Positions 2,733 to 55,343 of a stretch of 64,000 nt of DNA are shown here, piece by piece. Both the position numbers and the translations under genes were made by a program. The notes below the pieces were generated by a model. It saw only the letters and a program-made list of their open reading frames with translations. It had not been told where the DNA came from and did not search any database. Numbering within the stretch: the first letter of the stretch is position 1; each line of letters begins with the position of its first letter. The stretch lies in sequence record MT611523.1. The stretch is one strand, 5' to 3'. The DNA comes from Escherichia phage DK-13.

Positions 2733-3028
2733 GCCAATTTTACTCGCTTAACATATAAAGTATCTAAAACTAATTTCAATTCTCGTGCGTGTTCTTCAGT
2801 AGGAAAAACAGTTTTTGTTTCCCGCTTATCAAACCACCATTTTCTGGGAATATACCGTGTTTCAATACGTCCCATGCGTAAATAGCGGTTTGTAGTATAT
2901 GAATAGTTGGCAAGTTCATACTCTGCGCCCGGTTTTGTGGTGTATAAGGTAACCTTTCCATCATACTCCAATGGGCGTTCAAAACCATCTTTATCTTTGT
3001 GAACCAGCACATATGCGTAGTACATCAC
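2729..3028 (-). CDS. hypothetical protein (99 aa)
   Basis: co-oriented ORF, stop/start overlap with dda; no recognisable motif. Confidence 0.4.
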   Translation of the reverse strand: MMYYAYVLVHKDKDGFERPLEYDGKVTLYTTKPGAEYELANYSYTTNRYLRMGRIETRYIPRKWWFDKRETKTVFPTEEHARELKLVLDTLYVKRVKLA

Positions 3029-3029
3029 A

Positions 3030-3932: not shown

Positions 3933-4547
3933 TCAGTAAGAAAGAACGGAAAGATTCCATAATTTATAGTCTTCCCATCTATAAATGCTCTCAATAGAGT
4001 CCACGCGTAGCGTAGTTCCCGCAGGGAACATCATCTCATCTTCATCATTTACTAATTGCAAGTTTGAAGAACGAGTTATTTCAGGATATAGTCCGTTGAA
4101 CTCTTCAGGAGGTGCCGCACAAATCATTTTAAAAATCGCTTCCTGATAATCAAATGCGAATGGTGCATCATTAATACAGAAAATATTTTTGGTTCCATAG
4201 AAGCTAAAGGAAGCAAAGTTACGCGCAACACTGAAATCTTTGGAGAAACTCATTACACGGTCAAACTCAATCGTAGCACCAACACATCCTACGGTTTCAA
4301 GATATGCCAAAGTTTTCTTAGAAATCCCGCGATATAACTTACCAGGCACAGCAGAAGTCAAATTCTTACGAATAATTTTGTTCAAAGTTTCCTGGATAGT
4401 GTCTGGCTTATTTTCCATACACTGCCAGAGTGTACTCTGTTCCAACTCAGAGTAAATTTCATCAATTTCAATCTGGGTATTTTCACGAAAATATTCACAT
4501 TTAACTGCATTGATGTACTCTGCTAATTGGTGACTTGCGTACAGCAT
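3933..4547 (-). CDS. modA: ADP-ribosyltransferase, ModA-like
   Basis: about 204 aa from ATG 4545-4547; LYRG ... SFSKDFSVARNF ... E-rich motif set shared with adjacent paralogue; T4 modA/modB position; ORF-track start 4580 is a leader read-through. Confidence 0.6.
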   Translation of the reverse strand: MLYASHQLAEYINAVKCEYFRENTQIEIDEIYSELEQSTLWQCMENKPDTIQETLNKIIRKNLTSAVPGKLYRGISKKTLAYLETVGCVGATIEFDRVMSFSKDFSVARNFASFSFYGTKNIFCINDAPFAFDYQEAIFKMICAAPPEEFNGLYPEITRSSNLQLVNDEDEMMFPAGTTLRVDSIESIYRWEDYKLWNLSVLSY

Positions 4548-4578
4548 TTTATTATCCTCATCAGTAGTTGATAGGAAC

Positions 4579-4608
4579 ATCTTAACGTGTCTTATTGCTC
4601 TTGTACAC
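4579..4608 (-). promoter_or_regulatory. sigma70-type early promoter with class-A leader
   Basis: -35 TGTACA (4603-4608), -10 TAAGAT-like at 4579-4585, conserved CCTATCAACTACTGATGAGGA leader. Confidence 0.45.
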
Positions 4609-5152
4609 AGTCAAGAACATAATAATCACCAACAAATCCAGCATCAACTATCACGAATTTCTGGTCAACTGGAACAAACCATTCAAGCTCAGAATCAATC
4701 ATGTCCATGTATTCTTCACGTCTTAACGTTGCCGCCTGTTCGGAACCAGAAGCTGTATTGAAGAATTCCAGTGGAACATCAAGCGCGAGCTTACGCATTA
4801 CATCATGGTAACAAAAAGCTTTTGTCTGATTCAATCTGACGATAGTCCTTGTCACATATTCCATTGCAGCAAAATCCCTGGCAATACCATAGTCTTCTGT
4901 AAAGGAGGTTATCCTTCCAAATTCAAAAGGTTGCATTGATTCTTTTGCTTCATCTAACAAATCAATCTCTTGCTGGGTCACCCCACGATACAAGACTGTA
5001 TCAGGTATAGACAACCTTGACTTGATGATTGAGTTAACGTTTGAATGCAAGGTCTTATCAACCTTTGATGTGCGGCATTCAAATAATGAAGCTATCTCCA
5101 TTTCACTAAATTTTAACTGGTTGGGTTCGGTATCAGATTTGATGATGTTCAT
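4592..5152 (-). CDS. modB: ADP-ribosyltransferase, ModB-like
   Basis: 186 aa; paralogous to the ModA-like ORF (LYRGV ... TSFTEDYGIARDFA). Confidence 0.55.
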   Translation of the reverse strand: MNIIKSDTEPNQLKFSEMEIASLFECRTSKVDKTLHSNVNSIIKSRLSIPDTVLYRGVTQQEIDLLDEAKESMQPFEFGRITSFTEDYGIARDFAAMEYVTRTIVRLNQTKAFCYHDVMRKLALDVPLEFFNTASGSEQAATLRREEYMDMIDSELEWFVPVDQKFVIVDAGFVGDYYVLDCVQEQ

Positions 5153-7332: not shown

Positions 7333-7566
7333 TTATTTTATCATAACCTTTTTAGTTAAAAGCTCGTCGGGATGCCTTCTGGCGTATGAAGGGCTTTCTT
7401 TTACTGGGGTATTTGAAATAACATCACTTAATTTATCAGCTCTAGCTTTTAATTCTACGTGTTCTTTTGAATCTTTAAAAGGATGACTAATTATTTGCAA
7501 ATTAAGACCATGTAATTCATATTTAAGCCCTTCCATAAATCTTGCTGGGCACCCGTAATTATTCAT
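7333..7566 (-). CDS. hypothetical protein (77 aa)
   Basis: co-oriented ORF between HNH gene and soc. Confidence 0.3.
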   Translation of the reverse strand: MNNYGCPARFMEGLKYELHGLNLQIISHPFKDSKEHVELKARADKLSDVISNTPVKESPSYARRHPDELLTKKVMIK

Positions 7567-8407
7567 TTTCGAACCTCTTTACCATGTTTATATAATTTTC
7601 GTCTGGATAACCTAAACTAACTGCTAACTTTCTAAAATTCACATATTTAGGTTTGTTATTACTAAGCCATAAATCTCTAAGCTCAATTTCATAATTCCAT
7701 TTAAGCTGGTTTCCTCTAGCAGTTTTGCTCAAAGTTTTTCCTTTATCTTTTAGAGCTTTTTCCGAAGACTGTTTTAATTTTTGGAGATTTAAAACTTCCT
7801 CAACAGATAAATTATTTTCTTCTGCATAGCGCGCACAAAAATCTTTTACTGTAGCTATTAGACAGTTTTTGTGGGTACCTAAAACTTCCGGATTATTTTC
7901 TTCAACCAAAACTCCCCAGTATCTTCGATAGCGAGGCATATCCCGCGAAATCCAGTCATTATACCAGAAATCAAAATTAGAATACATAAAGGATTTTCTT
8001 TTACGGAGAATGTCTTGCTCTATCCACTCCCCGCGTTTATCGGCCCATAACTTAATAGTAAGGTCTTTCTCTAAATCAGAAAGCTTCTTAAACTGGGCAC
8101 TATTTGTTAGTGTCATTCTCTGGAATGCATTAAGCAAACCCAACACCCGAGTTGAGCACAAAAGATAATGAACATATATGTGTTGGTATATAGGAAGATA
8201 CACCCTATTCCAAGGAGAGATTTTAAAATCGCTGTATTCTGGAAATGCACACTTCGGAAGTATATGATGAGCTTCCGTTTTAGATTTGGTATGGACGTTT
8301 AGTTTATACTTATCTATAATTTTTAAGTAATCATCTAAAAGTTCCCATTGCGGGAACTTTTCTTTAAGAACGGATTTGAAATTAATATCCATTGTCCTGA
8401 CGTTCAA
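7559..8407 (-). CDS. HNH homing endonuclease (Mob-like), freestanding
   Basis: TEAHHILPK HNH core motif; sits at the gene 56/soc junction where T4 carries segF; 5' end overlaps gene 56 so exact start is uncertain. Confidence 0.75.
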   Translation of the reverse strand: MNVRTMDINFKSVLKEKFPQWELLDDYLKIIDKYKLNVHTKSKTEAHHILPKCAFPEYSDFKISPWNRVYLPIYQHIYVHYLLCSTRVLGLLNAFQRMTLTNSAQFKKLSDLEKDLTIKLWADKRGEWIEQDILRKRKSFMYSNFDFWYNDWISRDMPRYRRYWGVLVEENNPEVLGTHKNCLIATVKDFCARYAEENNLSVEEVLNLQKLKQSSEKALKDKGKTLSKTARGNQLKWNYEIELRDLWLSNNKPKYVNFRKLAVSLGYPDENYINMVKRFENE

Positions 8408-9221: not shown

Positions 9222-9362
9222 CCAGTAAGAAAAGCCCATGATGTTTCTCTGTGGAACTTACTGGTTGTGCCTATCGCTGCAACACAAGGGGTGCACTTAC
9301 CTCAGGTCACAACGGAACATATCCATTCCATCATCGGTTACTTTACCGGAATCCCTTCCTAA
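9222..9362 (+). pseudogene. start-less, rearranged partial copy of the 8982-9179 gene
   Basis: translation ...LWNLLVVPIAATQGVHLPQV aligns with ...LWNFVVAPIALAHGVILPVV of the upstream gene; no start codon; preceded by a copy of that gene's 3' end. Confidence 0.35.
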
Positions 9363-10108
9363 ACTTTTGCGTACTTCCAAAAATGGCCGTTTGACCTATA
9401 CATTCGGCCTGTCTTTTTATTTCTTTTACAAGCTGTGTATATATTTTGAGTATTGCCCGCCAATTGTAATAATTCCTTTGCCTCAGCTCCCGAATTATAC
9501 TTTTCAAGTATATTACCAAATTCATCGCATCTACAAACCGGTGTTCCAGTTGCCTTTCGGCATGCTTCTCGGCGCAACTTTTTCGTTTCTTCGGTTTGCG
9601 GATTTTCTTTAAATCGTCTCATTTGTGCATCGCGATTCTTTTGCCGTTGTTCATCAGTAATTGGATTATTTTGATAATACAATTTTAATGAGTTGGCTAT
9701 TTTGCTTTTGGTTTTATCAGACGCAGGGTGGTCGTTATGTCGCTTGTGTAAAGCAATTAACATTTTGTCTTTAAACTCGGATTGACTCCATAAGTTTGAC
9801 ATATGTTCACTAACGGCTTTACTATGTTCTTTTCGCATCCATTCATATTTTGCGCTATCAAATTTGTCACCACACATCCGGTGTATAGCAAACATTAATT
9901 TAGAAAGTCGATAAATTTTAAAAAGTAACAAATGCGCAATAAAATGTTCTCTTGCTGATAACAATACCAAATTATCTTCGGTGTCAGGCCCACCCAAACA
10001 CCTTGGTAGTATATGATGGGACTCCGTATAAAATGGGATATTCTTTTTGTTTAGGCCCCTTGCGAGGCCTTTGTCTATTAATTTATTATATAATTTTAGA
10101 TAATTCAT
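9359..10108 (-). CDS. HNH homing endonuclease (Mob-like), freestanding
   Basis: ESHHILPRCLGG ... N ... H HNH motif; ATG overlaps gene 61 stop (ATGA). Confidence 0.8.
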   Translation of the reverse strand: MNYLKLYNKLIDKGLARGLNKKNIPFYTESHHILPRCLGGPDTEDNLVLLSAREHFIAHLLLFKIYRLSKLMFAIHRMCGDKFDSAKYEWMRKEHSKAVSEHMSNLWSQSEFKDKMLIALHKRHNDHPASDKTKSKIANSLKLYYQNNPITDEQRQKNRDAQMRRFKENPQTEETKKLRREACRKATGTPVCRCDEFGNILEKYNSGAEAKELLQLAGNTQNIYTACKRNKKTGRMYRSNGHFWKYAKV

Positions 10109-11133
10109 ATTTTTGCATATTTGGATAATCGAAGTTTTGCCATTAAACCTTGTGCAATATTATCATTCATATAGGCTTCAATTTGCTCAGGCGTTGCTCC
10201 TTCCGATTTAATCATTTCATTTATATCTTTCGTATGCCACGGTGCATTGTCCCAGAACATAACAGCTTCTCCTGCATCGACTAATTTCTTCATACGTTTA
10301 ATTGTATCAGGATGTCTTGCTTCTGAATCCATCACCCATACTCTGGTTTCTGGATAAGGAACAGCTTCCAATGACAATGTTCCACCAGTTATCGCAATGC
10401 TGTTAGGGATAAACAAACTATCAATCGGACCTTCCATTACCCATACACGTTTACGCTCATCAATCTTGTCTACGCCATAGACTTTGGAAGCTTCTGGGTG
10501 AGCTTTGATTGTGATATATTTTTGTGGTGCATCTTTGCGAAGAGCTCGTCCTTGGAAAGATTCGATTTCTTTTTTGCCGTTGAAGATAGGAATAACCAAG
10601 CGTGGTTCATTCGTTTCATTCTTATACGTCCCAGGATTAACGGAGTTAACTAATGCGGGCCATTGGTTTGTAAACCATAACCGGTTCCAAACATTGCTCG
10701 GAATACACCGACTTTTTACATACTTAACTATCGGATGCGCTTCTGGTAAAGTATCGAGTCTTTCACAAAAAGCAAGCTGCTCAATAACCGGAGTTTTTTC
10801 TGGTTCTTTCGGAGTTTCAATGACTTCATTGCGTTGTCGCCCGAAGGCGTTCTCCTTATACTTCTCAACCATATATTCCCGGTGTAAATCCGGCTCAAAC
10901 TCTTTTATGTATTTGCTTATATGCGTGGAGTAGTCACAGTTAAAACATTTCACGTAAACCGCACCATCAGCCGGATTAGTATACGCCCAGAATCGAGCCT
11001 TGTGTGAATCTTTCTGGGAGTCCCCACAAACCTTGCAACGACAGTTTGCTTTAAATGTGCTCCCGGTGACTTCTCTATAACGTGGTTGATACGATAAAGC
11101 TCTGACTGCAAATTCTTTATCAATATATGACAT
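10105..11133 (-). CDS. 61: DNA primase gp61
   Basis: 342 aa; N-terminal CxxC...CxxC zinc ribbon and TOPRIM-like core; T4 gene order 56-61-41. Confidence 0.9.
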   Translation of the reverse strand: MSYIDKEFAVRALSYQPRYREVTGSTFKANCRCKVCGDSQKDSHKARFWAYTNPADGAVYVKCFNCDYSTHISKYIKEFEPDLHREYMVEKYKENAFGRQRNEVIETPKEPEKTPVIEQLAFCERLDTLPEAHPIVKYVKSRCIPSNVWNRLWFTNQWPALVNSVNPGTYKNETNEPRLVIPIFNGKKEIESFQGRALRKDAPQKYITIKAHPEASKVYGVDKIDERKRVWVMEGPIDSLFIPNSIAITGGTLSLEAVPYPETRVWVMDSEARHPDTIKRMKKLVDAGEAVMFWDNAPWHTKDINEMIKSEGATPEQIEAYMNDNIAQGLMAKLRLSKYAKI

Positions 11134-11165
11134 AGTTTCCTCATTTCAATGGCCCCGAAGGACCA

Positions 11166-11333
11166 TTATACTGTAGGTTTATCGTCTTTGTTCTTACGCT
11201 TTTTTGATGGGATTTGTTCAGGGCCTTTATTGACAACTGCCCCGGAAGTGGTACCTGTTGCGATATTAGTTGGGTTTCCACCTGCATCACCGGCAACCAT
11301 ATTTTCGTTGATAAAATCTTTGAATGTTTTCAT
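11166..11333 (-). CDS. small protein with capsid-targeting-like N-terminus (55 aa)
   Basis: MKTFKDFINE followed by I-x-E resembles the T4 internal-protein CTS (MKTYQEFIAE); exact TATAAATA 17 nt upstream. Confidence 0.4.
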   Translation of the reverse strand: MKTFKDFINENMVAGDAGGNPTNIATGTTSGAVVNKGPEQIPSKKRKNKDDKPTV

Positions 11334-11349
11334 AACACCCCCTTTCCGC

Positions 11350-11357
11350 TATTTATA
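11350..11357 (-). promoter_or_regulatory. T4-type late promoter TATAAATA
   Basis: exact TATAAATA on minus strand upstream of ORF 11166-11333. Confidence 0.45.
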
Positions 11358-11544
11358 CAACGAAGATAGCTTTATCACCATTTGCATCAGTCACTTCATA
11401 AGTGTCTTCATGATACAATGGAATAATCCAGGTAACACCATCATCAGCGATAACATGGATTGCTTCTTGGTCTTGCGACACGATTTCATATTCTTCAAAA
11501 ATCTGGAAGACGGAAATCTTAGAGCCCGTACACATTGCACTCAT
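11353..11544 (-). CDS. hypothetical protein (63 aa)
   Basis: co-oriented acidic ORF. Confidence 0.3.
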   Translation of the reverse strand: MSAMCTGSKISVFQIFEEYEIVSQDQEAIHVIADDGVTWIIPLYHEDTYEVTDANGDKAIFVV

Positions 11545-11740
11545 ATTGTTCCCTTCTTTTAATCAGTTGGCGATGTGCCTTTTTAAGTTTACGAATCTGA
11601 CGTTTAGTCGGTCGAGCAACGTAAGCTTGAGTAGTTACTCGTCCAAAAACTCCATACTTGGGAGACGGAGTATCAATAAAGACTTCCCATTGACAAGAGT
11701 AACTATATATTGCTTTAGAGAATTGGGTCAAAACAAACAT
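11519..11740 (-). CDS. small basic protein, PTKRQIR paralogue 1 (73 aa)
   Basis: W..hI ... Y.ARPTKRQIRKLKK motif shared with ORFs 12887-13126 and 35730-35915. Confidence 0.45.
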   Translation of the reverse strand: MFVLTQFSKAIYSYSCQWEVFIDTPSPKYGVFGRVTTQAYVARPTKRQIRKLKKAHRQLIKRREQYECNVYGL

Positions 11741-11741
11741 A

Positions 11742-12095
11742 TTAACCTCGCTTCATGAAGGCATTAAAAATCTGGTCGTCAACAGACTGTTCTTGAGCTT
11801 TGACCCAAGCTCCTTCCAGAATGTCATTCGCTTCAGTAGATATCATGACCCCAATTTCAGGGTTTCCTGTTATCCATGCTGCACAATCGCGCACATTCTT
11901 TTTATCAAATGGGTAGCCGCGAGTATCTTCATAAGGTCCATTCATTACCATAAATGAGCGAGCCTTTATGATAACATCATCTTTAACGATAATATAACCA
12001 ATCGCCTGATTAAACCGAGGCTCACGGAATTCATAATGAGCATTACCGTCATTATTGCTCGCTAGTTCAAAATTCAGAAAATTATAATAACTCAT
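11742..12095 (-). CDS. hypothetical protein (117 aa)
   Basis: C-terminus VDDQIFNAFMKRG encoded by the 37-nt direct repeat shared with the next gene. Confidence 0.45.
   Translation of the reverse strand: MSYYNFLNFELASNNDGNAHYEFREPRFNQAIGYIIVKDDVIIKARSFMVMNGPYEDTRGYPFDKKNVRDCAAWITGNPEIGVMISTEANDILEGAWVKAQEQSVDDQIFNAFMKRG
11747..11783. repeat. 37-nt direct repeat, copy 1 (CTCGCTTCATGAAGGCATTAAAAATCTGGTCGTCAAC)
   Basis: identical to 12102-12138; encodes the last ~12 codons of both adjacent genes. Confidence 0.8.
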
Positions 12096-12096
12096 A

Positions 12097-12534
12097 CTAA
12101 TCTCGCTTCATGAAGGCATTAAAAATCTGGTCGTCAACTGAATATACAGGGGTTTCCAGAATTTTCAAAAGACTGTTTTTGATGTACTTACCCGGGATAC
12201 CCATATTAACAATACTGTCATTCAATTCATTGTCAGGGTTGATGTCTTTAAATTCAAACCCGTCAAACTCAACCTTGTCAGGAATACCATCAGCGAAAAA
12301 ATAAACCAATTGGTGCATTGTATTGCACGAAAATAATTTGGACTTGACCGCAATAAGTTCTTTCCAATGGTTTAATTCTTTGTTAAGAAGCTTATGAGCA
12401 AACGTAATTCTATCATCACTATCAACAAGAAAATAACCCAGGTATTGAATGTCGTCGCTCCAAAACACCCGGTATGCCTGTGCATTTGGATTTTTACAGC
12501 GAAGTTTTTTGATAACTAAATTTCTGTTAATCAT
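12097..12534 (-). CDS. hypothetical protein (about 145 aa)
   Basis: internal Met start chosen to avoid overlap with upstream ORF; C-terminus SVDDQIFNAFMKRD from repeat copy 2. Confidence 0.4.
   Translation of the reverse strand: MINRNLVIKKLRCKNPNAQAYRVFWSDDIQYLGYFLVDSDDRITFAHKLLNKELNHWKELIAVKSKLFSCNTMHQLVYFFADGIPDKVEFDGFEFKDINPDNELNDSIVNMGIPGKYIKNSLLKILETPVYSVDDQIFNAFMKRD
12102..12138. repeat. 37-nt direct repeat, copy 2
   Basis: identical to 11747-11783. Confidence 0.8.
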
Positions 12535-12535
12535 T

Positions 12536-12829
12536 TTATTCACCTGTAACCCATTGAACAATTTTGCTATTGTCAAATGAAGCATCGCAATACAGAACAT
12601 AGTTATACTGCATAACGTCACCAGAAGTCAATTTGTCAGATACTTCTTTAACCATATCAGGGCGGTCACGTTTAGTTATGTTCATAATATCAGCATAAAT
12701 CTGATGTTCAACATCAGTCTGGTCGGCAGTCATAGACCACTCACAAAGGTCTTTATCAAGTCCAGCAGTAACTGGAGCTGTACCACATGATGCTACGGTA
12801 AGAATTGCCGCGATTAATAACTTTTTCAT
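12536..12829 (-). CDS. secreted lipoprotein/periplasmic protein (97 aa), possibly Spackle-like
   Basis: signal peptide with lipobox-like VASC; T4 sp position between 61 and 41; own class-A promoter. Confidence 0.45.
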   Translation of the reverse strand: MKKLLIAAILTVASCGTAPVTAGLDKDLCEWSMTADQTDVEHQIYADIMNITKRDRPDMVKEVSDKLTSGDVMQYNYVLYCDASFDNSKIVQWVTGE

Positions 12830-12857
12830 TTCAATCTCCTCAGTAGTTGATAGGGAT

Positions 12858-12886
12858 AATATACAGCATTATCCCTTTGTTGTACA
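12858..12886 (-). promoter_or_regulatory. sigma70-type early promoter with class-A leader
   Basis: -35 TGTACA (12881-12886), 17-nt spacer, -10 TATATT; leader CCCTATCAACTACTGAGGAG. Confidence 0.5.
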
Positions 12887-13126
12887 CTATTTTAATGCAT
12901 CTTCCAGATAAATTTTGCGGAATTTGCGTTTTGTCTGACGAATCTGACGCTTGGTAGGTTTCACAGGAAATTCGAAGAACTCTACGTATTCTTGTTCATA
13001 ATCATTGTGGCCGACTGAAAGAACTAGTTCCCAGCTGCTTACGGTGCGTTGGATAAACATATTATGCTTACCAAAAGATTTATTCCAAAAAGAACTAGGG
13101 GTAGGTTTCATTAATGCGATATTCAT
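12887..13126 (-). CDS. small basic protein, PTKRQIR paralogue 2 (79 aa)
   Basis: VKPTKRQIRQTKRKFRK C-terminal motif. Confidence 0.45.
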   Translation of the reverse strand: MNIALMKPTPSSFWNKSFGKHNMFIQRTVSSWELVLSVGHNDYEQEYVEFFEFPVKPTKRQIRQTKRKFRKIYLEDALK

Positions 13127-36503: not shown

Positions 36504-37274
36504 TTATTCATTATTCTTTTTCCTAGCATCAGAAGCAGCTTTTCTTCTAGTTCTAGTCCTTTCTAAATCAGCAGCAATCAAATTAGCTATATTAGTAACC
36601 GGATTACCAAATTCATCATAAGTAATATATTTCCAAGCATATCCAAATGTATGATTTCTCTCATTAAGCAGGCACCTTTTAATAGCGCTGCCTGCTTTAT
36701 AAATTGAAAGAAATTTAGCTGCATCTGGTAAATAATCAAAAGTTTCTACCAATTCACCTGAACTTAAATCAAATGCACCAAAAAGCTCAATAGTGTATTT
36801 ACTCCTATCAAGACTGGCTTTAGCTTCATGCTTTAAGTGGTTTATTTCTTTTAGAATTTTAAGGTCTAATTGTCCTGGTATTTTATCTATCTGTACACCC
36901 ATTCTAGATAAAGCATACCCCATTTTATAGTTTCCTGATTTGGCCAACCAATAGTGAGCCATAATATGGCTTTCTATACTTAGATTTACAAGATTCCATT
37001 TAGACGTTTTAAATTCAGGAAATAAGGATTTAGGTAATATATGGTGAGACTCGGTTTTACCTTTTATTAAAGGCCCGGAAGACTCTATTAAAGAGAAATA
37101 GTTTTCAGCAAATTGCCAATAAGGCAATTTGCTTTTAAGAAGTTCTTTAATTTCGTCTAAGGTTTTAGTAGGCTTAACGGTCACTCCAATAGCTTGATAC
37201 TTCAAAATCAGGCTCGCCGTCGTCCCAGTACCAGGGACCCACCGGATGCCAATCGCCATGCTTATCTTCTTCAT
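36504..37274 (-). CDS. HNH homing endonuclease (Mob-like), freestanding
   Basis: TESHHILPK...N...H HNH core; 5' 100 nt overlap the upstream ORF, so the true start (possibly GTG near 37184) is uncertain. Confidence 0.7.
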   Translation of the reverse strand: MKKISMAIGIRWVPGTGTTASLILKYQAIGVTVKPTKTLDEIKELLKSKLPYWQFAENYFSLIESSGPLIKGKTESHHILPKSLFPEFKTSKWNLVNLSIESHIMAHYWLAKSGNYKMGYALSRMGVQIDKIPGQLDLKILKEINHLKHEAKASLDRSKYTIELFGAFDLSSGELVETFDYLPDAAKFLSIYKAGSAIKRCLLNERNHTFGYAWKYITYDEFGNPVTNIANLIAADLERTRTRRKAASDARKKNNE

Positions 37275-43143: not shown

Positions 43144-43890
43144 ATGATTTTATCCGGAAGAACTGTTGATGAACTCAATGAAAAAGTCCAGGCTGCCTTG
43201 GCTGATAATTGGTATTTGTTTGGTTCTACTATGGTGTTGCCGAATACCCCTACAGATAGCAAAGAGCGTTTTTTCCAAACTATGTCCAGCTCGGAAACTC
43301 AGATACCGGGTCCGCCTGGTCCCAAAGGAGAACCGGGTGTACCCGGACCAAAAGGAGACCCAGGTGGGGATGGAAAATCTTCTTATCAGATATGGCTTGA
43401 CTTGGGAAATACAGGAACTGTTGATGATTTTTTAACTGATACAGCAGGAAAGAGGGAAAAATCCGAGGTGTTTTGGAGTGGTATAAACGTTCTATTAACT
43501 AATGGTACGACTTCAAACATAATTAGTGTTTTAAAGGGGATTCCACCGACTGCAGGGACTCTATCTCCGTTTTTTAGAACCACTGATGATAAGTTGTGGC
43601 CATATAACCAAGACAGAAGCCTAATGTTTAAACTCAACCTTATTGGTAATTTTGCAGGAGCCTCGCAAGCTCGAAGTATAACATTAAATTTCGTTGGAAC
43701 CAACGGAAACACTTATATACAGAATCGTCCGGAAAATGCTACAGATATTTTGTCTTTTACAACGTTCTTTAGCATTGATAAAGATGGGGCAATGGCAACC
43801 AATGGTACAGCTATAACTGTTATGCCAAATGGCGGCAACTTTACAATAACCTCCGCATTGTTAGTAGCCGAACAAACAGTGACTTCATAA
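43144..43890 (+). CDS. collagen-repeat protein (248 aa), plus strand
   Basis: SD AAGGAGAAAG 5 nt before ATG; seven consecutive G-X-Y triplets (GPPGPKGEPGVPGPKGDPGGDG) after a ~60-aa N-terminal domain, then a ~165-aa Gly/Thr/Asn-rich C-terminal domain. Confidence 0.6.
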   Translation: MILSGRTVDELNEKVQAALADNWYLFGSTMVLPNTPTDSKERFFQTMSSSETQIPGPPGPKGEPGVPGPKGDPGGDGKSSYQIWLDLGNTGTVDDFLTDTAGKREKSEVFWSGINVLLTNGTTSNIISVLKGIPPTAGTLSPFFRTTDDKLWPYNQDRSLMFKLNLIGNFAGASQARSITLNFVGTNGNTYIQNRPENATDILSFTTFFSIDKDGAMATNGTAITVMPNGGNFTITSALLVAEQTVTS

Positions 43891-43913: not shown

Positions 43914-44155
43914 TAGATTGCACTCCAAAAATTATGGAATCTTATAGTATTGATAGCCCAGTTAACAAACCTGCGAGTTTGTTTGGGAGTTGGTTTGCAT
44001 ATGTACTTATTGTTGATTCGTCTGCCAGTTTCCCGACAGACTGCTTCGAGATACCAGCGCCGACCTTTATTAGGTCTTCCGTATGATAAGAAGACCTTCA
44101 TTTCTTCATTAACGATAATAGGAATTGTGGTTGTCAAGGTATACCTCTTCAACAA
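43913..44155 (-). CDS. hypothetical basic protein (80 aa)
   Basis: co-oriented ORF; overlaps the 3' end of the nucleotidyltransferase-like gene in another frame. Confidence 0.3.
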   Translation of the reverse strand: MLKRYTLTTTIPIIVNEEMKVFLSYGRPNKGRRWYLEAVCRETGRRINNKYICKPTPKQTRRFVNWAINTIRFHNFWSAI

Positions 44156-45119
44156 ACTTGTCCCAGAACTTCATGTCTACCTTATCAGGCATACCATTCT
44201 TAGCAGCCTGGATGGCCAGAACTTCAACTAAATCGACAGTATCTTCAAGAAGTTCTTGAACTTCTTTAAATGGTAATTCACCAGCTTTAATCAGCTTAAT
44301 GATAGAGGCTTCACGCAATGGGAATACCAAGTCACCTGTTTGGTAGATTTCCATCAATTGATACCCTGCACGATAAGCATGGCTCAGTGCTTTCCAATCA
44401 ATACCTTCGTTAGCTTCTGCTTTACGAGCACGTTCACCATATTCGGCGTCGAGTTTATTCAGAGATTGCTTGAGCTCGATTAATGACAGAGTAGTTTGGT
44501 ATTTACGACCGAGGACAGTATAGAACGTTTGAGGACCTGTTTTCTCATGGTTATGAAATACCCATTCGCAGAACTCGTTTTCAGGGAGTCTGTGTTTGAT
44601 ATCTTCTACCTTAGTACGTCGTTGCTTAGCGGAACCATCTTCTTGATAGTCAACCCATTGTTCAGGAATCTGGTTAACAATTTCCAATACACCACGCAGT
44701 GCAGCCAATCGAGAACCTTTAACACCATATTTGGAAGCTTGCTTACGGACGTACCCCAAATAGGCTTTCATGTTAGTTGTATAGAACCGTGAACGGTTGT
44801 CCTGAATAAACTTCCATACATCTGGTAAATCGGATTTGACTACCAGGTCAGCCGGGGTGTGAATCATATCCAGAGCAACGGTTTCGCCATCGGCCGCCAG
44901 TTTAAAGAAATATTTCAGACTATAAAGTTCATGGTCAACATCATCTTTTGTATTTTTGGTGGCCGTGTTATTCGTGTTCAGGTTGGTATGGTTCATCGCC
45001 GTCCCAAGTAGAATATCACGAGGATGCGGAACAAAGATTTCTTTAAAATCGACATCAGATTCTGGGGTACTTGTTCCATAAAGGTGGCTACCGAAGTAGC
45101 CTTTCATAACTGTTCTCAT
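44109..45119 (-). CDS. Pol-beta-superfamily nucleotidyltransferase-like protein (about 336 aa)
   Basis: G-S-x9-D-x-D motif (GSHLYGTSTPESDVDF) with a third acidic residue ~60 aa later (LDMIHT); ATG 45117-45119 overlaps upstream stop (ATGA). Confidence 0.55.
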   Translation of the reverse strand: MRTVMKGYFGSHLYGTSTPESDVDFKEIFVPHPRDILLGTAMNHTNLNTNNTATKNTKDDVDHELYSLKYFFKLAADGETVALDMIHTPADLVVKSDLPDVWKFIQDNRSRFYTTNMKAYLGYVRKQASKYGVKGSRLAALRGVLEIVNQIPEQWVDYQEDGSAKQRRTKVEDIKHRLPENEFCEWVFHNHEKTGPQTFYTVLGRKYQTTLSLIELKQSLNKLDAEYGERARKAEANEGIDWKALSHAYRAGYQLMEIYQTGDLVFPLREASIIKLIKAGELPFKEVQELLEDTVDLVEVLAIQAAKNGMPDKVDMKFWDKFVEEVYLDNHNSYYR

Positions 45120-45568
45120 TTTTTGTCCTCGAAGTGGATTACAGGACACATCTTAGATTTACGAGCTTTAATGTATTGAATAACGATGTTTTCTTTAGTT
45201 TCCTTTCCTTCACGTTTGGCTAGAATACGTTGCCATTCCTTTTCTTCTTTACGTAAATCATACCATGCGTGTAAATTCATCGCACCTAATGCCAAACCAA
45301 TGGATAGTGCAATAATAAGAGCTATTGCAACCAACCCTAAAACAAACCCTAGACTCAACAGAACAGGAGTACTTAATACAAAGAAATTCTCTAATACACC
45401 AACGCCTGCAACAGTTAATCCGAAAAGCGTACCACCTGCAACAACAGCACAAGCAAAACAAGCCCAAACCATTTTCCAGAAATAAGCACATAGAGAGTGC
45501 GGTCGAGAATGACTGTCATAAAAACGGTCATGTAATTTAACGTGCCAAGAGTTTGCATTGATAATCAT
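45116..45568 (-). CDS. membrane protein (150 aa)
   Basis: co-oriented ORF with three or four hydrophobic helices. Confidence 0.45.
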   Translation of the reverse strand: MIINANSWHVKLHDRFYDSHSRPHSLCAYFWKMVWACFACAVVAGGTLFGLTVAGVGVLENFFVLSTPVLLSLGFVLGLVAIALIIALSIGLALGAMNLHAWYDLRKEEKEWQRILAKREGKETKENIVIQYIKARKSKMCPVIHFEDKK

Positions 45569-48180: not shown

Positions 48181-48456
48181 TTATAATCTTTTAAAATTAA
48201 AGCAGTACTCTGAAAATAAACTTGCAAAATTACGTTCGACCCAGACCCGTTGTTTTGGGCTGGTAATCGTTGACAAATAGTACGCTTGTTGCAGGCTTAT
48301 TCCGTTTTTATTCGGGCACTCTTTGTTGAACGAGTGATAGGTACTTGCAACGATTTCGACTTCGCGCTCATACCTTTCCTGGTCCTGTTGCATAGGAACA
48401 AAAACCAAAACCAGGAATATCAAAATAGAGATATACGTCCAAACCTTGTATACCAT
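48181..48456 (-). CDS. membrane-anchored protein (91 aa)
   Basis: co-oriented ORF with N-terminal TM helix. Confidence 0.4.
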   Translation of the reverse strand: MVYKVWTYISILIFLVLVFVPMQQDQERYEREVEIVASTYHSFNKECPNKNGISLQQAYYLSTITSPKQRVWVERNFASLFSEYCFNFKRL

Positions 48457-48463
48457 GCGAACC

Positions 48464-49036
48464 TCAGCTTGTTAATTCGAGCCAATGTTTTCTGCACAAA
48501 GATACGTACGATTCATTCCCACCGACCAATACTTGCTCGCCGTCCTTTACAGCAGCACCGTCGATTACTCGAGCGGTCATGGTTGCTTTCCGGCCGCAAT
48601 GACAGACGCCCTTTAATTCAACCAGTTTATCCGAAATAGCCAGAAGTCTGGCCGAACCGGGAAATAATTGACCCCGAAAATCTGTTCTTAACCCGTAACA
48701 CATAACGGGAATATTGTAATTATCAACCACTTGAGCTAACTGGTCAATTTGCTCTGGTAACAAAAATTGAGCTTCATCGACCAGGACACAATGGATATCC
48801 TTTTGAGACTCGGCCCATTTATAGAATTCAAACAGGTTCATGTCGGCCGTTACCAGGTTTGCTTCCTGGCTAATACCGATGCGTGATTTAATTTCGCCTT
48901 CCGAGTCCCGATTATCAATAACAGGTTTTAGCAAAAGCACACTCATTCCACGCTCTTTATAGGAATAAGCTGCAGTCAGCAATGAAGCTGTTTTGCCTGC
49001 ATTCATTGCTGCGTAATGATAAATTAAACTCGCCAT
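48464..49036 (-). CDS. tk: thymidine kinase
   Basis: 190 aa; P-loop YAAMNAGKT; C-terminal CHCG...C zinc motif; collinear with T4 Tk. Confidence 0.93.
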   Translation of the reverse strand: MASLIYHYAAMNAGKTASLLTAAYSYKERGMSVLLLKPVIDNRDSEGEIKSRIGISQEANLVTADMNLFEFYKWAESQKDIHCVLVDEAQFLLPEQIDQLAQVVDNYNIPVMCYGLRTDFRGQLFPGSARLLAISDKLVELKGVCHCGRKATMTARVIDGAAVKDGEQVLVGGNESYVSLCRKHWLELTS

Positions 49037-49045
49037 ATCACCTTC

Positions 49046-49231
49046 TTAAAGCGTATTCACATAAGCTATTAATTCGTTTTCTTTCGCATCAAATCGATTG
49101 GCAAATTCTTCCTGATGTTCGGCATCTATTGGACCGTATTCATCATAAAAGGCGTTTGCTTCTGTATGCTCATCCAAAAGCTCATGGATAAGCTCAAATA
49201 ATCTACTTTTCTGACTAATGCTTAAACTCAT
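49046..49231 (-). CDS. hypothetical acidic protein (61 aa)
   Basis: co-oriented ORF. Confidence 0.35.
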   Translation of the reverse strand: MSLSISQKSRLFELIHELLDEHTEANAFYDEYGPIDAEHQEEFANRFDAKENELIAYVNTL

Positions 49232-49434
49232 TTCGGTTCCCCATATCGCACAAATTTAGGATGTTCGCAATAACCAGAATGAAAACCTTCACCCTTATGA
49301 TTAGAACATCCTTTATTAGAACAGTACCACCAGTAATCAAATTCACATTCCATTTCATCGTTGCACAAAGCTGCGATTACTGGCCATTCACATTTTTCAC
49401 ATTTGGCCGTTTTAAGAATTCGGGCTTGGCTCAT
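49228..49434 (-). CDS. Cys-rich small protein (68 aa)
   Basis: multiple CxxC pairs (CEKCEWP...CNDEMEC...CSNKGC). Confidence 0.4.
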   Translation of the reverse strand: MSQARILKTAKCEKCEWPVIAALCNDEMECEFDYWWYCSNKGCSNHKGEGFHSGYCEHPKFVRYGEPK

Positions 49435-49593
49435 AATTCAATTCCGTCCATAGCCAAAATTCTTTTTCGTTGGGCCTTGAGAGCCTCGGCAGCTTGGTCA
49501 TAATCTTCTTTACTGCCGTGGGGTTGTAAAGCTGCCACCTTTTTAGCTAAATGAATAAGCTTATCTAAGTTTTCAACAATACGTTCTTGTTCT

Positions 49594-50058
49594 TCATTCA
49601 GGCTCATAATCCACCACTATCAAATCAATGTCAGGGGTAAAAATATCAATTAACATAGAGACCTTTTCCCAATCTCCACCTGCAATACCACATCCAATCC
49701 GTGGGATATAAACCACTGGTCGGAATAGTGTTCCTTCACTCAGGACTCGATTTAATTCTACCATACAATTTACTAAAGCATGATAATCAAGATTTGGTCC
49801 TGGTTCATATTGGGTGTAAAGATTAAAGCAAGTTGACGGACCTCGGGAATATTTGAAAACAATAGACATATCGCCTAGTTTTCCTCTGTAACCATAGTCG
49901 GTTGAGGTTTTGTCTATTTCTAAAATCCTTGGATAAGCCTTCGCCAACTGACCAGCTACTCCTGAACCCATTGTATGGAAGCAATTGCAACCATGTGCAA
50001 TGTTTTTACCACTAAGAAAGAGGGCGACGATATCGCCCTTAATATACTGGGTAATCAT
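49594..50058 (-). CDS. macro-domain protein (154 aa)
   Basis: IKGDIVAL ... AHGCNCFHTMGSGVAGQL follows the macro-domain ADP-ribose-binding pattern (GDIT...NAAN...GGGVAGAI). Confidence 0.55.
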   Translation of the reverse strand: MITQYIKGDIVALFLSGKNIAHGCNCFHTMGSGVAGQLAKAYPRILEIDKTSTDYGYRGKLGDMSIVFKYSRGPSTCFNLYTQYEPGPNLDYHALVNCMVELNRVLSEGTLFRPVVYIPRIGCGIAGGDWEKVSMLIDIFTPDIDLIVVDYEPE

Positions 50059-50414
50059 TTAGAGTTCAACCCTCTATTATATGAATCCACTAACCTGTCA
50101 ACCATACTGGTGCAGGCCGCCTTATATTTTGCACTTGAAAGAATGCAATCCATTTCAAATAATTTCTTTTCATATTTGTTGGATAATACATTCTTTTTCA
50201 AAAGTGTATGTTCAACATCATTTTGGCCATCTTTATATGCCGCGGTGAGCTTGGCGCTGAACTGGATTACACAATCCACATTGCTTGGTGCGCAATAATC
50301 TTTAGCCGTCCTCGTTGCATATTCTATGATGCTGTTGTTGTCATCGCTCTGTACTGAAGCTATTCCTCCCATGCTGAATACTAACCCTATGGCTAAAGTG
50401 ATAACTCTTACCAT
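50055..50414 (-). CDS. secreted protein (119 aa)
   Basis: N-terminal signal peptide; six Cys. Confidence 0.4.
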   Translation of the reverse strand: MVRVITLAIGLVFSMGGIASVQSDDNNSIIEYATRTAKDYCAPSNVDCVIQFSAKLTAAYKDGQNDVEHTLLKKNVLSNKYEKKLFEMDCILSSAKYKAACTSMVDRLVDSYNRGLNSK

Positions 50415-50416
50415 TT

Positions 50417-50959
50417 TTAATCCACCGTTTTTAATAGGCCTCGTGATTTTAAGTAGTTAGCTTTTTCTAGGACCTGTGAAGCATACGTATTACCAGCTTT
50501 CACATTCCATCCTGCGTTATATGATGATAGTGTTTTCCTTATATCCCCCTTATGAATATTCAACCAGTATGAAAGCTCAATGTAAGCCCAGCGTGCACTG
50601 TTCTCTCTCTTGCTTATCATCTTGATTATTTCTTTATCTGTCATTGTCCACCCAACCTGTTTCACGCGTTCGCGCACGGTTGGAAGATAATTTTGGAATA
50701 TACCATATGCATGATGCTTATCTTTATTTAATCCAGTATTAATCCCAGCAGAACTCTCCTGCCAGGTTAAACCAGCCATGATATATCCCAAACCATTATG
50801 TTGGTGCGGATTTTCTTTGTACTTACCATTTTTCTGGAACTGTTCTCCAAACGCATAAGCATATTGGAGGTTTTCCATTTGTTCATTACTGAAAGTAGGC
50901 TCTACGCTATGGGCAGACATACTAACTGTCAATAGTAAGGTGGCGATTACTTTTTTCAT
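50417..50959 (-). CDS. secreted lytic-transglycosylase-like protein (180 aa)
   Basis: signal peptide; SLT-like TWQESSAG ... AYGIFQ motif. Confidence 0.45.
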   Translation of the reverse strand: MKKVIATLLLTVSMSAHSVEPTFSNEQMENLQYAYAFGEQFQKNGKYKENPHQHNGLGYIMAGLTWQESSAGINTGLNKDKHHAYGIFQNYLPTVRERVKQVGWTMTDKEIIKMISKRENSARWAYIELSYWLNIHKGDIRKTLSSYNAGWNVKAGNTYASQVLEKANYLKSRGLLKTVD

Positions 50960-50969
50960 GAATTCCCCA

Positions 50970-51428
50970 TTAGATATAAATCACTTTTGTGCTAATTTTT
51001 CCTTCCAGACGATTAGAGTTAACAAACGCCATACGACAACACATGGTCGGAGACTTCCCAGGAATAGCGGGGTTAACTGTCATTCCTAACCACAGGTTCT
51101 TGTCCGTGATTTCCAGACGAAGTGGACGGTAGTTCACATTCGGGTCAATTTGTGCTTCAACTTCCGGGAGTGGTTTCATCTCCAAGAATTCAACGATTTC
51201 TTTTACATGTGGTGTGATTTTTCCAAACAAGTCAAAAACATATTGTTCATCAATTTCACGTTGGATTGCACGGTCCAACAGGTGTGGACTGTACTTAATG
51301 AAGAATGCCTCAAGGCCTGCTTCTTTACAAGCCTTGTTGATAGCATTATTAATTTTGAGGAACTCCGTTTCAAAAATGCGACGAAGTTTATTGCGGCGAA
51401 TGTAAACACTTGAATCGATAGTAGTCAT
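50970..51428 (-). CDS. regB: endoribonuclease RegB
   Basis: 153 aa from MTTIDSS; VYIRRNKLRR...KYS.HLLDRAIQREIDE.YVF collinear with T4 RegB; ORF-track start 51485 overlaps the promoter -35. Confidence 0.9.
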   Translation of the reverse strand: MTTIDSSVYIRRNKLRRIFETEFLKINNAINKACKEAGLEAFFIKYSPHLLDRAIQREIDEQYVFDLFGKITPHVKEIVEFLEMKPLPEVEAQIDPNVNYRPLRLEITDKNLWLGMTVNPAIPGKSPTMCCRMAFVNSNRLEGKISTKVIYI

Positions 51429-51455
51429 GATTATCTCCTTTTGTTTGATGGGATA

Positions 51456-51484
51456 ATCATAACTCATTTCAATCTGCTTGTACA
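51456..51484 (-). promoter_or_regulatory. early promoter with class-A-variant leader (regB)
   Basis: -35 TGTACA (51479-51484), 17-nt spacer, -10 TATGAT (51456-51461). Confidence 0.55.
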
Positions 51485-52064
<580 letters not shown>

Positions 52065-52068
<4 letters not shown>

Positions 52069-52283
52069 TTTACTTCCTCATCAGATGCAGTATCATATTC
52101 TACCAAACGAAGGCCATCATATCCACCACGAACAGAGATATATGTGCTCGGATAAACAATTTCTTTACCGTTCCATTGGCCGCCGTCCCAACATTCCATA
52201 AAGTCTTGTTCGCCTTGTCCCTGGAACCAATCAACAAACATCTTCAGAGCTTCATCAGAGCCTTCAATTGTCAATTTAGACAT
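52065..52283 (-). CDS. hypothetical protein (72 aa)
   Basis: co-oriented ORF. Confidence 0.4.
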
Positions 52284-52572
52284 ATTTTTTCCAATCAGAA
52301 ATCATATGAATCTCTTGGTCATAAGTCAAGAGACTACGAGTAATAATACCCTTACAAGGCCCAGAAATAAATTCCAGAGTAAAGTAAGGAACCTGTTTCA
52401 TTAATCGGATGCTTGGCGCATGACATCTAAAACGAGAGCCCTTAAAGGGCCCTGTCATGAATACATATTCTAATGGATAGAAATAAGCATATTCGAAATT
52501 TGTAGTAAGGTCCTCTCTTCGGACCTTACGTGAGAAATAGCAGAACTCAAAAAGTTCTTCATCAGTCATCAT
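52276..52572 (-). CDS. hypothetical protein (98 aa)
   Basis: co-oriented ORF. Confidence 0.4.
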   Translation of the reverse strand: MMTDEELFEFCYFSRKVRREDLTTNFEYAYFYPLEYVFMTGPFKGSRFRCHAPSIRLMKQVPYFTLEFISGPCKGIITRSLLTYDQEIHMISDWKKYV

Positions 52573-53096
52573 TGCATTCCTATCACAAAGAACAGTGGCA
52601 GAGGTTTAGAACCTTGGCACATAAATTTATTCATCATTGTCTGATAAGCTTCATAGAACTTATCCATCGCTGGTAGGCGAATAGGCTCTTCAATAATAAT
52701 CAATAATCGGGTAACAGACAGTCCACGATATTTGTGAAAATGATCTTCATCTAAAAATGAACGAACAGTATCATATACAACAAAACCAGGTCGTTCAACA
52801 TTAAGATGTGGCTGTGCTTTAGAAACCCGCTTTATTATATCACAGATTTCTCGTGAGCGATGCGAAGAACTCGACATAACAATTACATCATTACCCTTAG
52901 AAACCCAATCCGCAGCAAATTGTGCAATGGCACTTGTTTTACCTGTTTGCCTTCCGCCGTCAAGTCTAAGAGTACCAAACTCTTGCATTCTTGAAGCGGG
53001 TTCATACCAGGTGTATTGGTCTGAATCTAAGCGTTCAATGGCGCGTTCAGCGAAGGCGTGCATTAAGGTTAGATAAATGGGAGTTAAAAATTTCAT
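52569..53096 (-). CDS. small P-loop NTPase (175 aa)
   Basis: Walker A GGRQTGKTS and Walker-B-like LLIIIEEP. Confidence 0.5.
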   Translation of the reverse strand: MKFLTPIYLTLMHAFAERAIERLDSDQYTWYEPASRMQEFGTLRLDGGRQTGKTSAIAQFAADWVSKGNDVIVMSSSSHRSREICDIIKRVSKAQPHLNVERPGFVVYDTVRSFLDEDHFHKYRGLSVTRLLIIIEEPIRLPAMDKFYEAYQTMMNKFMCQGSKPLPLFFVIGMQ

Positions 53097-54883: not shown

Positions 54884-55343
54884 ATCCGAAAATTTGAGTC
54901 ATTACCTTGTACATCGATTTGCCCATCACATACTGCCATTGACTCGGTTTAATCAGAGCAAATGCATCGAACTCTGGAACCGAACTACCATCCGGGAAGG
55001 TATGATAGGCAGAGCATTTACTATGTCTGAACTGCTCATGCTCGACCGGAACCGTGTACAGAAACAGGTGAAGATTTTTGTTATCTGAATAACGGAATTC
55101 ACCCAGGTCCTTTAAGAATGCTGGGTCATATTGGGTAAACCCGGTTTCTTCTTCGGTTTCACGGATAGCAGCTTCAATCGGGGATTCACCAGCTTCAACA
55201 TGACCCTTAGGGATGTCCCATTTGTGTGCAGGCATACCTGGTTTACGAGAACCAGTCACACGACCCATGAATAACTCTTTATCTTCAGTCATGAAAATAA
55301 TACCAGCAGATAATTCTTTCACCTTGTTTTTCTTACTCATCAT
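54882..55343 (-). CDS. nudE: Nudix hydrolase NudE
   Basis: Nudix box GHVEAGESPIEAAIRETEEETGF; internal Met chosen (ORF track begins 42 codons upstream); adjacent to e as in T4. Confidence 0.8.
   Translation of the reverse strand: MMSKKNKVKELSAGIIFMTEDKELFMGRVTGSRKPGMPAHKWDIPKGHVEAGESPIEAAIRETEEETGFTQYDPAFLKDLGEFRYSDNKNLHLFLYTVPVEHEQFRHSKCSAYHTFPDGSSVPEFDAFALIKPSQWQYVMGKSMYKVMTQIFG

Follow-up and report, generated by a model that had tools for sequence, protein, structure and literature searches.

The window analysed here, a 64,000-nucleotide stretch of Escherichia phage DK-13 (sequence record MT611523.1), carries at positions 49594-50058 an open reading frame (ORF) that is the ortholog of T4 tk.4, recently renamed adfM (anti-DarT factor Macrodomain). 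Its product, Tk.4, is a stand-alone macrodomain protein with a predicted glutamine-type active site like that of SCO6735 from Streptomyces coelicolor, and its main role is probably to use this site to remove the ADP-ribose that the toxin DarT2 places on thymidines in single-stranded phage DNA. Further, tk.4 and the small ORF downstream of it form a diverged cassette under purifying selection, set in a backbone ~99% identical to that of phage SP18. Neither the presence of tk.4 at this locus nor its anti-DarTG2 role in T4 is new. T4 annotations have included the gene for two decades, its relatives are labelled “macro domain protein” or “phosphatase”, and the anti-DarTG2 role was reported in 2025, which leaves small discovery value in the gene as such.

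Orthology and fold of the tk.4 product

A sequence-only reading of the window had called ORF 49594-50058 a macro-domain protein, and this assignment is confirmed. The GDIV motif that it named occupies residues 8-11, with AHGCNCFHTMGSGVAGQL at residues 21-38. In the hidden Markov model search against macro-domain families that had been suggested as a check, the Pfam Macro model PF01661 matched residues 22-134 of the product at 28.4 bits, against a gathering cut-off of 22, and PHROG 335 (“phosphatase”) was matched at E=1e-63. Given these Pfam and PHROG matches, the ORF is real and not a chance reading frame.

The window belongs to a Gaprivervirus-like T-even phage, with 90-97% identity between the 3.1-kb stretch around tk.4 and the T-even phages that infect Escherichia, Shigella, and Yersinia in the SP18/VR20 group (genus Gaprivervirus). 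Specifically, the product aligns with T4 Tk.4 (NP_049723) over 154/155 residues at 57% identity (E=2e-69) and is 80% identical to SP18 Tk.4 at the protein level. The gene order in SP18 is tk, tk.2, an unnamed ORF, tk.3, tk.4, vs, vs.1, and regB, with the counterpart of our ORF annotated as tk.4. The arrangement in T4 (NC_000866) matches it, with tk.4 between tk.3 and vs and bearing the RefSeq annotation “phosphatase; contains A1pp phosphatase motif”. The window keeps the T4/SP18 order, with tk, tk.4, vs, vs.1, and regB all on the minus strand (Table 1). The suggestion, in the sequence-only reading, that T4 lacks a macro-domain gene at this locus was therefore mistaken, as the tk.4 annotation and the 57% identity make plain. 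The T4 protein shares with ours its position between the tk cluster and vs, nearly its length (155 versus 154 aa here), its match to PHROG 335, and identical residues at H22, N25, Q83, and in the phosphate-binding loop. It differs at 43% of residues, and its neighbor tk.3 is replaced in the window by an unrelated 58-aa ORF.

The gene is tightly packed between its neighbors. The vs stop and the tk.4 ATG share an ATGA junction, and the final 14 nt of tk.4 are shared with the start of the downstream 58-aa ORF. Such packing is typical of T-even prereplicative genes. A scan of 48300-52800 for promoters and terminators returned counts of 17 versus 13.6±3.5 in shuffled sequence and 4 versus 2.9±1.8, respectively, with none above expectation. 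A G+C-rich hairpin with an 8-bp stem, and after it a T-rich tract (AGGGCGATATCGTCGCCCT CTTTCTT), lies at 50021-50039 on the minus strand, some 20 nt into the coding region of tk.4; terminator-like sites in the scanned region do not exceed chance.

A single-sequence AlphaFold model of Tk.4 was unusable (pLDDT 43), whereas a model built from a 72-sequence alignment reached a pLDDT of 96.3 and a pTM of 0.91 and has the three-layer alpha/beta/alpha macro fold. A non-macro fold, the outcome that the sequence-only reading had said would count against it, thus did not appear; the top Foldseek matches in the PDB are macrodomains, namely, TARG1, Poa1p, DarG, and BT1257 (E ~1e-9 to 1e-7, TM 0.75-0.83). 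When the Tk.4 family profile was compared with PDB sequences, the matches were BT1257 (9e-21), SCO6735 (3e-17), TARG1 (1e-16), Poa1p (9e-15), and DarG (9e-12). Both in sequence and in structure, the ALC1-like class (TARG1/DarG/SCO6735/Poa1p) is nearer to Tk.4 than are the MacroD, viral Mac1, or PARG classes. By the Foldseek and profile rankings, Tk.4 is an ALC1-like macrodomain.

A predicted glutamine-type active site

The mapping of the active site rests on alignments, made with hhalign (profile-profile) and MAFFT, and on residue conservation counted in 263 Tk.4-family homologs, plus 80 bacterial homologs. The HMMER pairwise alignment to SCO6735 misplaces the Gln loop, and the hhalign/MAFFT placement was used instead. 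Both methods set N79-L-Y-T-Q83 of Tk.4 on N76-F-P-T-K80 of DarG, an alignment by which the catalytic lysine of DarG and TARG1 is a glutamine in Tk.4. Specifically, Q83 falls at the site of DarG K80, TARG1 K84, and SCO6735 Gln85, while A126 falls at that of TARG1 Asp125, and N25 is aligned to DarG N22. On SCO6735 and BT1257, NLYTQ is aligned to NMIGQ (hhalign probability, 98.7% and 99.1%, respectively), again with agreement from MAFFT, and the two methods equate H22 with His24, N25 with Asn27, Q83 with Gln85, and G124 with Gly128 of SCO6735. Among the Tk.4 homologs, Q83 and Y81 are each invariant (263/263), N25 is kept in 261/263 and H22 in 255/263, and P119, G122, and G124 are each kept in 261/263. 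The bacterial homologs retain the H, N, and Q together in 80/80 cases.

The equivalent residues have been mutated in SCO6735, where Q85A is inactive, N27S is nearly inactive, and G128E has reduced activity (PMC9411070). Further, SCO6735, which is without the Lys/Asp residues, still cleaves thymidine ADP-ribose made by DarT on DNA, and it does so faster than DarG or TARG1, through a proposed water-mediated mechanism in which Gln85 positions the distal ribose (PMC9411070). Taken with the alignments, these observations suggest that the active site of the Tk.4 family is of the SCO6735 type, built on Gln, and not of the DarG type, built on Lys. With such a site predicted for T-even AdfM, mutagenesis and mechanistic work would best center on Gln83, Asn25, and His22.

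Two aspects of this likeness deserve separation. First, SCO6735 (PDB 5e3b) and BT1257 from Bacteroides (PDB 2fg1), which are Gln-type ALC1-like macrodomains (PMC9411070), are ~28-30% identical to Tk.4, and their Gln with its supporting Asn, the His, and the phosphate-loop Gly are all present in Tk.4. Second, the mobile loop that defines their subclass corresponds, in both alignments, to a 5-6-residue gap after Q83 of Tk.4; the DNA-positioning Lys34 of SCO6735 is Ser32 in Tk.4, and Lys89, within the loop, is missing. SCO6735 and BT1257 are also bacterial chromosomal proteins, whereas Tk.4 is a phage early gene product. Hence, Tk.4 appears to share the SCO6735 catalytic constellation, but we do not file it in the SCO6735/BT1257 subclass.

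The differences from the lysine-type proteins are of several kinds. In human TARG1 (OARD1), the Lys84/Asp125 dyad is replaced by Gln83 and Ala126 in Tk.4. In DarG (DarG2; PDB 5m3i, 5m31, and 7omu), the catalytic Lys80 corresponds to Gln83, and both the C-terminal DarT-binding domain and the adjacent darT are missing for Tk.4, whose neighbors are vs and the 58-aa ORF. The NCBIfam DarG equivalog NF048014 scores 26.9 bits against a cut-off of 250, matching at model positions 19-148 of 338, and a tblastn search of the window with DarT2 gave no significant match. The possibility that Tk.4 is itself a DarG antitoxin was considered and is ruled out by the equivalog score, the absent catalytic Lys, the missing C-terminal domain, and the lack of a darT neighbor.

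A second phage protein has also been named AdfM, namely, gp104 of PhiKZ, a DarG2-like macrodomain of a chimallivirus, which removes ADP-ribose from DarT2-modified DNA in vitro (PMC13309987). Like Tk.4, it is a stand-alone phage macrodomain that counters DarTG2; it differs in being of the Lys type, with the motif FPTK as in DarG, and its match to the Tk.4 profile (hhalign E=3.8e-9) is weaker than that of DarG, SCO6735, or BT1257. Set against the Gln motif of Tk.4, the FPTK motif of gp104 places the two AdfM proteins, from T4 and PhiKZ, in different subfamilies, and they should not be handled as one family.

Table 1. Positions in the window of tk.4, its predicted functional motifs, its neighbors, and the other genes discussed in the text
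Feature	Position	Strand	Basis or remark
tk.4 / adfM ortholog, 154-aa stand-alone macrodomain protein	49594..50058	-	ATG start
Codons of residues 21-33 (AHGCNCFHTMGSG), predicted first ADP-ribose-binding loop, including H22 and N25	49960..49998	-	Alignment/conservation
Codons of residues 79-83 (NLYTQ), including Q83	49810..49824	-	hhalign, MAFFT, conservation
Codons of residues 119-128 (PRIGCGIAGG), predicted phosphate-binding loop	49675..49704	-	Alignments, conservation
vs (valyl-tRNA synthetase modifier), upstream neighbor of tk.4	50055..50414	-	tblastn with T4 Vs and SP18 Vs
58-aa ORF directly downstream of tk.4, in the tk.3 slot	49431..49607	-	Sequence comparison
tk (thymidine kinase), synteny anchor	48464..49036	-	100% identity to SP18 Tk, 71% to T4 Tk
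Diverged cassette: tk.3-slot ORF and most of tk.4, ~620 bp	49420..50035		60-nt identity bins versus SP18
modA	~3933-4580	-	Gene position in window
modB	~4592-5152	-	Gene position in window
nudE	54885-55340	-	Gene position in window

A probable counter-defense role and competing functions

The role that we favor for Tk.4 draws on the phenotype of its T4 ortholog. In a 2025 preprint on HIDEN-SEQ, a transposon sequencing approach applied to T4, only tk.4 was significantly depleted on a host expressing DarTG2, and a clean tk.4 knockout made T4 sensitive to DarTG2, whereupon the gene received the name adfM (bioRxiv 10.1101/2025.11.20.689424). The suggestion in the sequence-only reading that a phage macro domain could reverse a host ADP-ribosylation defense matches this phenotype. 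The knockout phenotype also fits with the observation that T4 without adfA and adfN (the latter being T4 gene 30.3) stays resistant to DarTG2 (PMC11825919). On the same side we count the PADLOC DarG model, which matches the macro part of Tk.4 at 2.4e-8. For the T4 anti-DarT factor gp61.2 (AdfA), tblastn gave no match in the window at E<=1e-3, and gene 30.3, by the T4 map, lies outside the region that the window covers.

In the course of events that we envisage, tk.4 would be expressed early in infection, as part of the leftward prereplicative gene block. The host DarT2 toxin, as the effector of the DarTG2 defense, would ADP-ribosylate thymidines of single-stranded phage DNA, and Tk.4 would strip off the ADP-ribose, thereby allowing phage replication to continue. 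Catalysis would most likely follow the SCO6735 scheme, with Gln83, held by Asn25, positioning the distal ribose and water carrying out the hydrolysis, and Tk.4 may protect further by binding DarT2 directly and inhibiting it. We infer that the allele in the window, at 57% identity, has the same role as that of T4, and that it works as a hydrolase on DNA.

Several observations weigh against this role. First, the allele is rather distant from its named counterparts, with only 57% identity to T4 Tk.4 and 80% to SP18 Tk.4. Second, Tk.4 is without the catalytic Lys of DarG and TARG1 and the Asp125 of TARG1, and likewise without the Lys34, Lys89, and extended mobile loop of SCO6735. Third, the preprint infers DNA ADP-ribose hydrolysis by T4 AdfM from similarity to DarG only (bioRxiv 10.1101/2025.11.20.689424). 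Fourth, DarT2 was found within 5 kb of the bacterial homologs at 0/80 loci, a search with a single DarT2 query by which divergent DarTs could be missed. Finally, distant phage homologs lie beside NAD+ salvage genes, and Poa1p H23 and S30 align with residues of Tk.4, from which it follows that Tk.4 may have small-molecule substrates.

The last of these points leads to an alternative that we consider unlikely, in which Tk.4 is a small-molecule ADP-ribose enzyme (an ADP-ribose-1''-phosphate phosphatase, an O-acetyl-ADP-ribose deacetylase, or a degrader of ADP-ribose-derived immune signals) and part of a phage NAD+/ADP-ribose economy. The RefSeq and PHROG labels for tk.4, “phosphatase” and “A1pp motif”, would agree with it, but they are inherited from a SMART/Pfam domain name and not from an assay. 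Among the top structural matches is Poa1p, a yeast enzyme of tRNA-splicing metabolism that acts as an Appr1p phosphatase, and H22 and T29 of Tk.4 align with its H23 and S30 (mutated in PDB 6lfs and 6lft), in a single-sequence alignment that covers residues 4-70 and 117-148 only; we know of no counterpart of this tRNA-splicing pathway in T-even infection. Genomic context adds to the case, with homologs in Pakpunavirus, Vibrio, and Acinetobacter phages adjoining genes for nicotinamide phosphoribosyltransferase (NAMPT) or phosphoribosyl pyrophosphate (PRPP) synthetase, as do fusions to DUF4326, which have been proposed to process ribose-linked phosphates. In addition, Iyer et al. favored soluble ADP-ribose derivatives as the substrates of phage Macro domains (PMC9503650). 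Because of the NAD+ salvage neighbors, in particular, a role in small-molecule metabolism and NAD+ economy stays a rival to thymidine de-ADP-ribosylation. However, the sole known phenotype of a Tk.4 ortholog is DarTG2 sensitivity, and the Gln/Asn pair is the one essential for hydrolysis of thymidine ADP-ribose on DNA in SCO6735. The two activities are, moreover, compatible with each other.

The salvage neighborhoods can be seen in Pseudomonas phage K5 (Pakpunavirus; locus 607-2980) and in some Vibrio and Acinetobacter phages, where a Tk.4-like gene stands beside genes for nicotinamide phosphoribosyltransferase and/or ribose-phosphate pyrophosphokinase.

RNA could also be considered as the substrate, with Tk.4 removing ADP-ribose placed by RNA-targeting transferase defenses, such as CmdTAC, or acting on the products of uracil-modifying enzymes. 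Two recent papers (PMC11833690 and PMC13036486) describe, in their abstracts, how RNA ADP-ribosylation is reversed, and SCO6735 is reportedly mentioned in their texts. Yet CmdTAC is robust against wild-type T4 and other T-even phages that carry tk.4 (PMC11618068), which argues that Tk.4 does not neutralize CmdT, and we regard an RNA-directed role as very unlikely.

The sequence-only reading had placed the macro-domain gene in another setting, as the completion of a writer/eraser gene set with ModA- and ModB-like ADP-ribosyltransferases, an Arr-like candidate, and the Nudix hydrolase NudE. The first two of these and NudE are indeed encoded in the window. The Arr-like candidate could not be recovered: no Arr or extra ADP-ribosyltransferase domain was found by Pfam in 20 unannotated ORFs of 150-346 aa, nor by PHROG in 10 of them, smaller ORFs lying outside the scan. 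As for the set, modA and modB lie 45 kb, and nudE 5 kb, from tk.4, and their placement follows the SP18 gene order. With such distances and a conserved T-even order, the four genes do not form a module.

It had also been suggested that the phage macro domain might tune the phage's own modification of host proteins, in effect pairing Tk.4 as an eraser with the writers Alt, ModA, and ModB, in a set with NudE. Beyond the presence of modA, modB, and nudE, this could draw on the ability of SCO6735 and TARG1 to remove protein-linked ADP-ribose from PARP1 E988Q as well (PMC9411070). The chemistry speaks against it. The transferases Alt, ModA, and ModB are of the R-S-E type and specific for arginine (PMC8120803), and arginine-linked ADP-ribose, a substrate of ARH/DraG-type hydrolases, lies outside the documented substrates of the TARG1/DarG/SCO6735 class, which are thymidine-linked ADP-ribose on DNA and Glu/Asp-linked ADP-ribose on protein (PMC9411070). 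On chemical grounds, it is therefore unlikely that Tk.4 erases the marks set by these phage writers. The preprint's description of tk.4, moreover, records only DarTG2-specific insertion loss (bioRxiv 10.1101/2025.11.20.689424), and, with the spacing and standard gene order noted above, we give this pairing the slimmest chance among the functions considered.

Homolog spread, allele exchange, and other features of the window

Relatives of Tk.4 are widespread. By tblastn, homologs occur in 2,733/50,697 phage records, from Straboviridae and from genera such as Felixounavirus and Pakpunavirus, with depositor labels that include “macro domain protein”, “Poa1p-like”, and “Appr-1-p processing protein”. 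A 72-homolog profile recovered 1,173 clusters at 50% identity with E<=1e-30, and 9,618 with E<=1e-10, in 1.84 billion representatives. Bacterial relatives are many, at <=44% identity, e.g., in Ruegeria, Verrucomicrobia, and Desulfobacteraceae. At the 80 bacterial loci, they are stand-alone proteins, mostly from marine Rhodobacterales, Verrucomicrobia, and Desulfobacteraceae, with the motif N-x-Y-T-Q (NAYTQ in 66/80). Origin from a captured DarG antitoxin was also considered and is not supported, given the failed equivalog, the absent catalytic Lys, and, in the search with one DarT2 query, the 0/80 loci with DarT2 within 5 kb; on this last count, the Tk.4 family is not evidently a captured antitoxin.

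Among the phage relatives, the homolog in Felixounavirus UAB_Phi87 (2495-3280) is 261 aa long, keeping NLYTQ and bearing a C-terminal extension of ~100 residues, with the polynucleotide kinase gene pseT at a distance of 2.3 kb.

Fusions were found in metagenomic proteins, specifically a Tk.4-like Macro-NADAR-DUF4326 fusion (P0259; 472 aa) and a DUF4326-Macro fusion (P0229; 302 aa). The NADAR fold reverses guanosine ADP-ribosylation by DarT1 (PMC11825919), and its fusion to Macro would fit a combined action against DarT. Fusions of Macro, DUF4326, and NADAR had previously been interpreted as proteins that process soluble ADP-ribose derivatives (PMC9503650). P0259 joins in one protein two folds that are now known to reverse DNA ADP-ribosylation of the DarT2 and DarT1 types.

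The tk.4 allele of the window is itself out of keeping with its surroundings. In 60-nt bins, DNA identity to SP18 is 32-90% across ~49420-50035, versus 97-100% in nearly all flanking bins, and the flanking proteins (tk, tk.2, vs, vs.1, and regB) are 98-100% identical to those of SP18. Relative to the SP18 allele, tk.4 has a dS of 0.79 and a dN/dS of 0.18, within a dN/dS range of 0.15-0.23. From this combination of a high dS and a low dN/dS, we conclude that recombination introduced a tk.4 allele that is old and functional, as opposed to decaying or rapidly diversifying. The allele is found at 97% identity in only one deposited phage, pEC-M719-6WT.2. The 58-aa ORF of the cassette (MSLNEEQERIVENLDKL...) is unrelated to the Tk.3 of T4 and SP18, and a tblastn query with SP18 Tk.3 had no match in the window. 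It is kept in 40 phage records, including those of some Gapriverviruses and of Edwardsiella, Klebsiella, and Enterobacter phages. In tk.4, an allele kept under purifying selection is swapped between genomes that are nearly identical elsewhere, as would be expected of a gene that has to deal with variable host defenses.

Exchange of this kind bears on a further alternative, in which Tk.4 is a stoichiometric inhibitor that, in the manner of AdfA and AdfB, binds DarT2 or the DNA on which DarT2 acts, without hydrolysis. The swapping of the tk.4 allele within a near-identical backbone would fit the matching of such an inhibitor to DarT2 variants, and SCO6735 Q85A, although catalytically dead, remains an inhibitor of DarT, and a stronger one than the DarG and TARG1 mutants (PMC9411070). 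Inhibition as the whole of the function is nevertheless decidedly improbable, in that the catalytic-site residues are strictly conserved in the 263 homologs and the 80 bacterial homologs, which argues for enzyme activity, and in that Tk.4, at 154 aa, is without the C-terminal DarT-binding domain of DarG.

Returning to hydrolysis of thymidine ADP-ribose, a broader proposal can be put forward, to which we give slightly less than even weight. Under it, AdfM of the Tk.4 type would be a thymidine ADP-ribose DNA hydrolase with a distinct mechanism, Gln-type and water-mediated, that phages recruited from widespread stand-alone bacterial macrodomains, independently of the Lys-type AdfM of PhiKZ. The name AdfM would then cover two convergent counter-defenses, and the exchange of cassettes would amount to a matching of alleles to DarT2 variants, for example, via added binding-inhibition.

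Other features of the window lie apart from the tk.4 locus. Three homing-endonuclease-like ORFs, at 7559-8407, 9359-10108, and 36504-37274, all on the minus strand, adjoin genes 56 and 61 and lie near gene 49, places at which SP18 is without such genes. For two of them, the matches are to PHROG 655 (homing endonuclease) and PHROG 12434 (HNH endonuclease), and for the third Pfam returns a weak HNH match; the ~1.6 kb by which the DNA between modB and gene 61 is longer is accounted for in this way. Although the window has genes 56 and 61, tblastn at E<=1e-3 found no homolog of dam or segF in it (gene 61 region, 10000-13000). On the plus strand, at 43144-43890, a 248-aa ORF carries an Sf6-type tail-needle-knob domain (PF16532, 2.6e-32) and a sub-threshold match to a collagen-repeat model. 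It stands among minus-strand early genes in the nrdC region, where SP18 annotates only small minus-strand ORFs. Nearby, at 44109-45149 on the minus strand, an nrdC.11-like ORF carries an RlaP domain (PF10127, 1.2e-12), of the RNA repair pathway and the DNA polymerase beta-type nucleotidyltransferase family.

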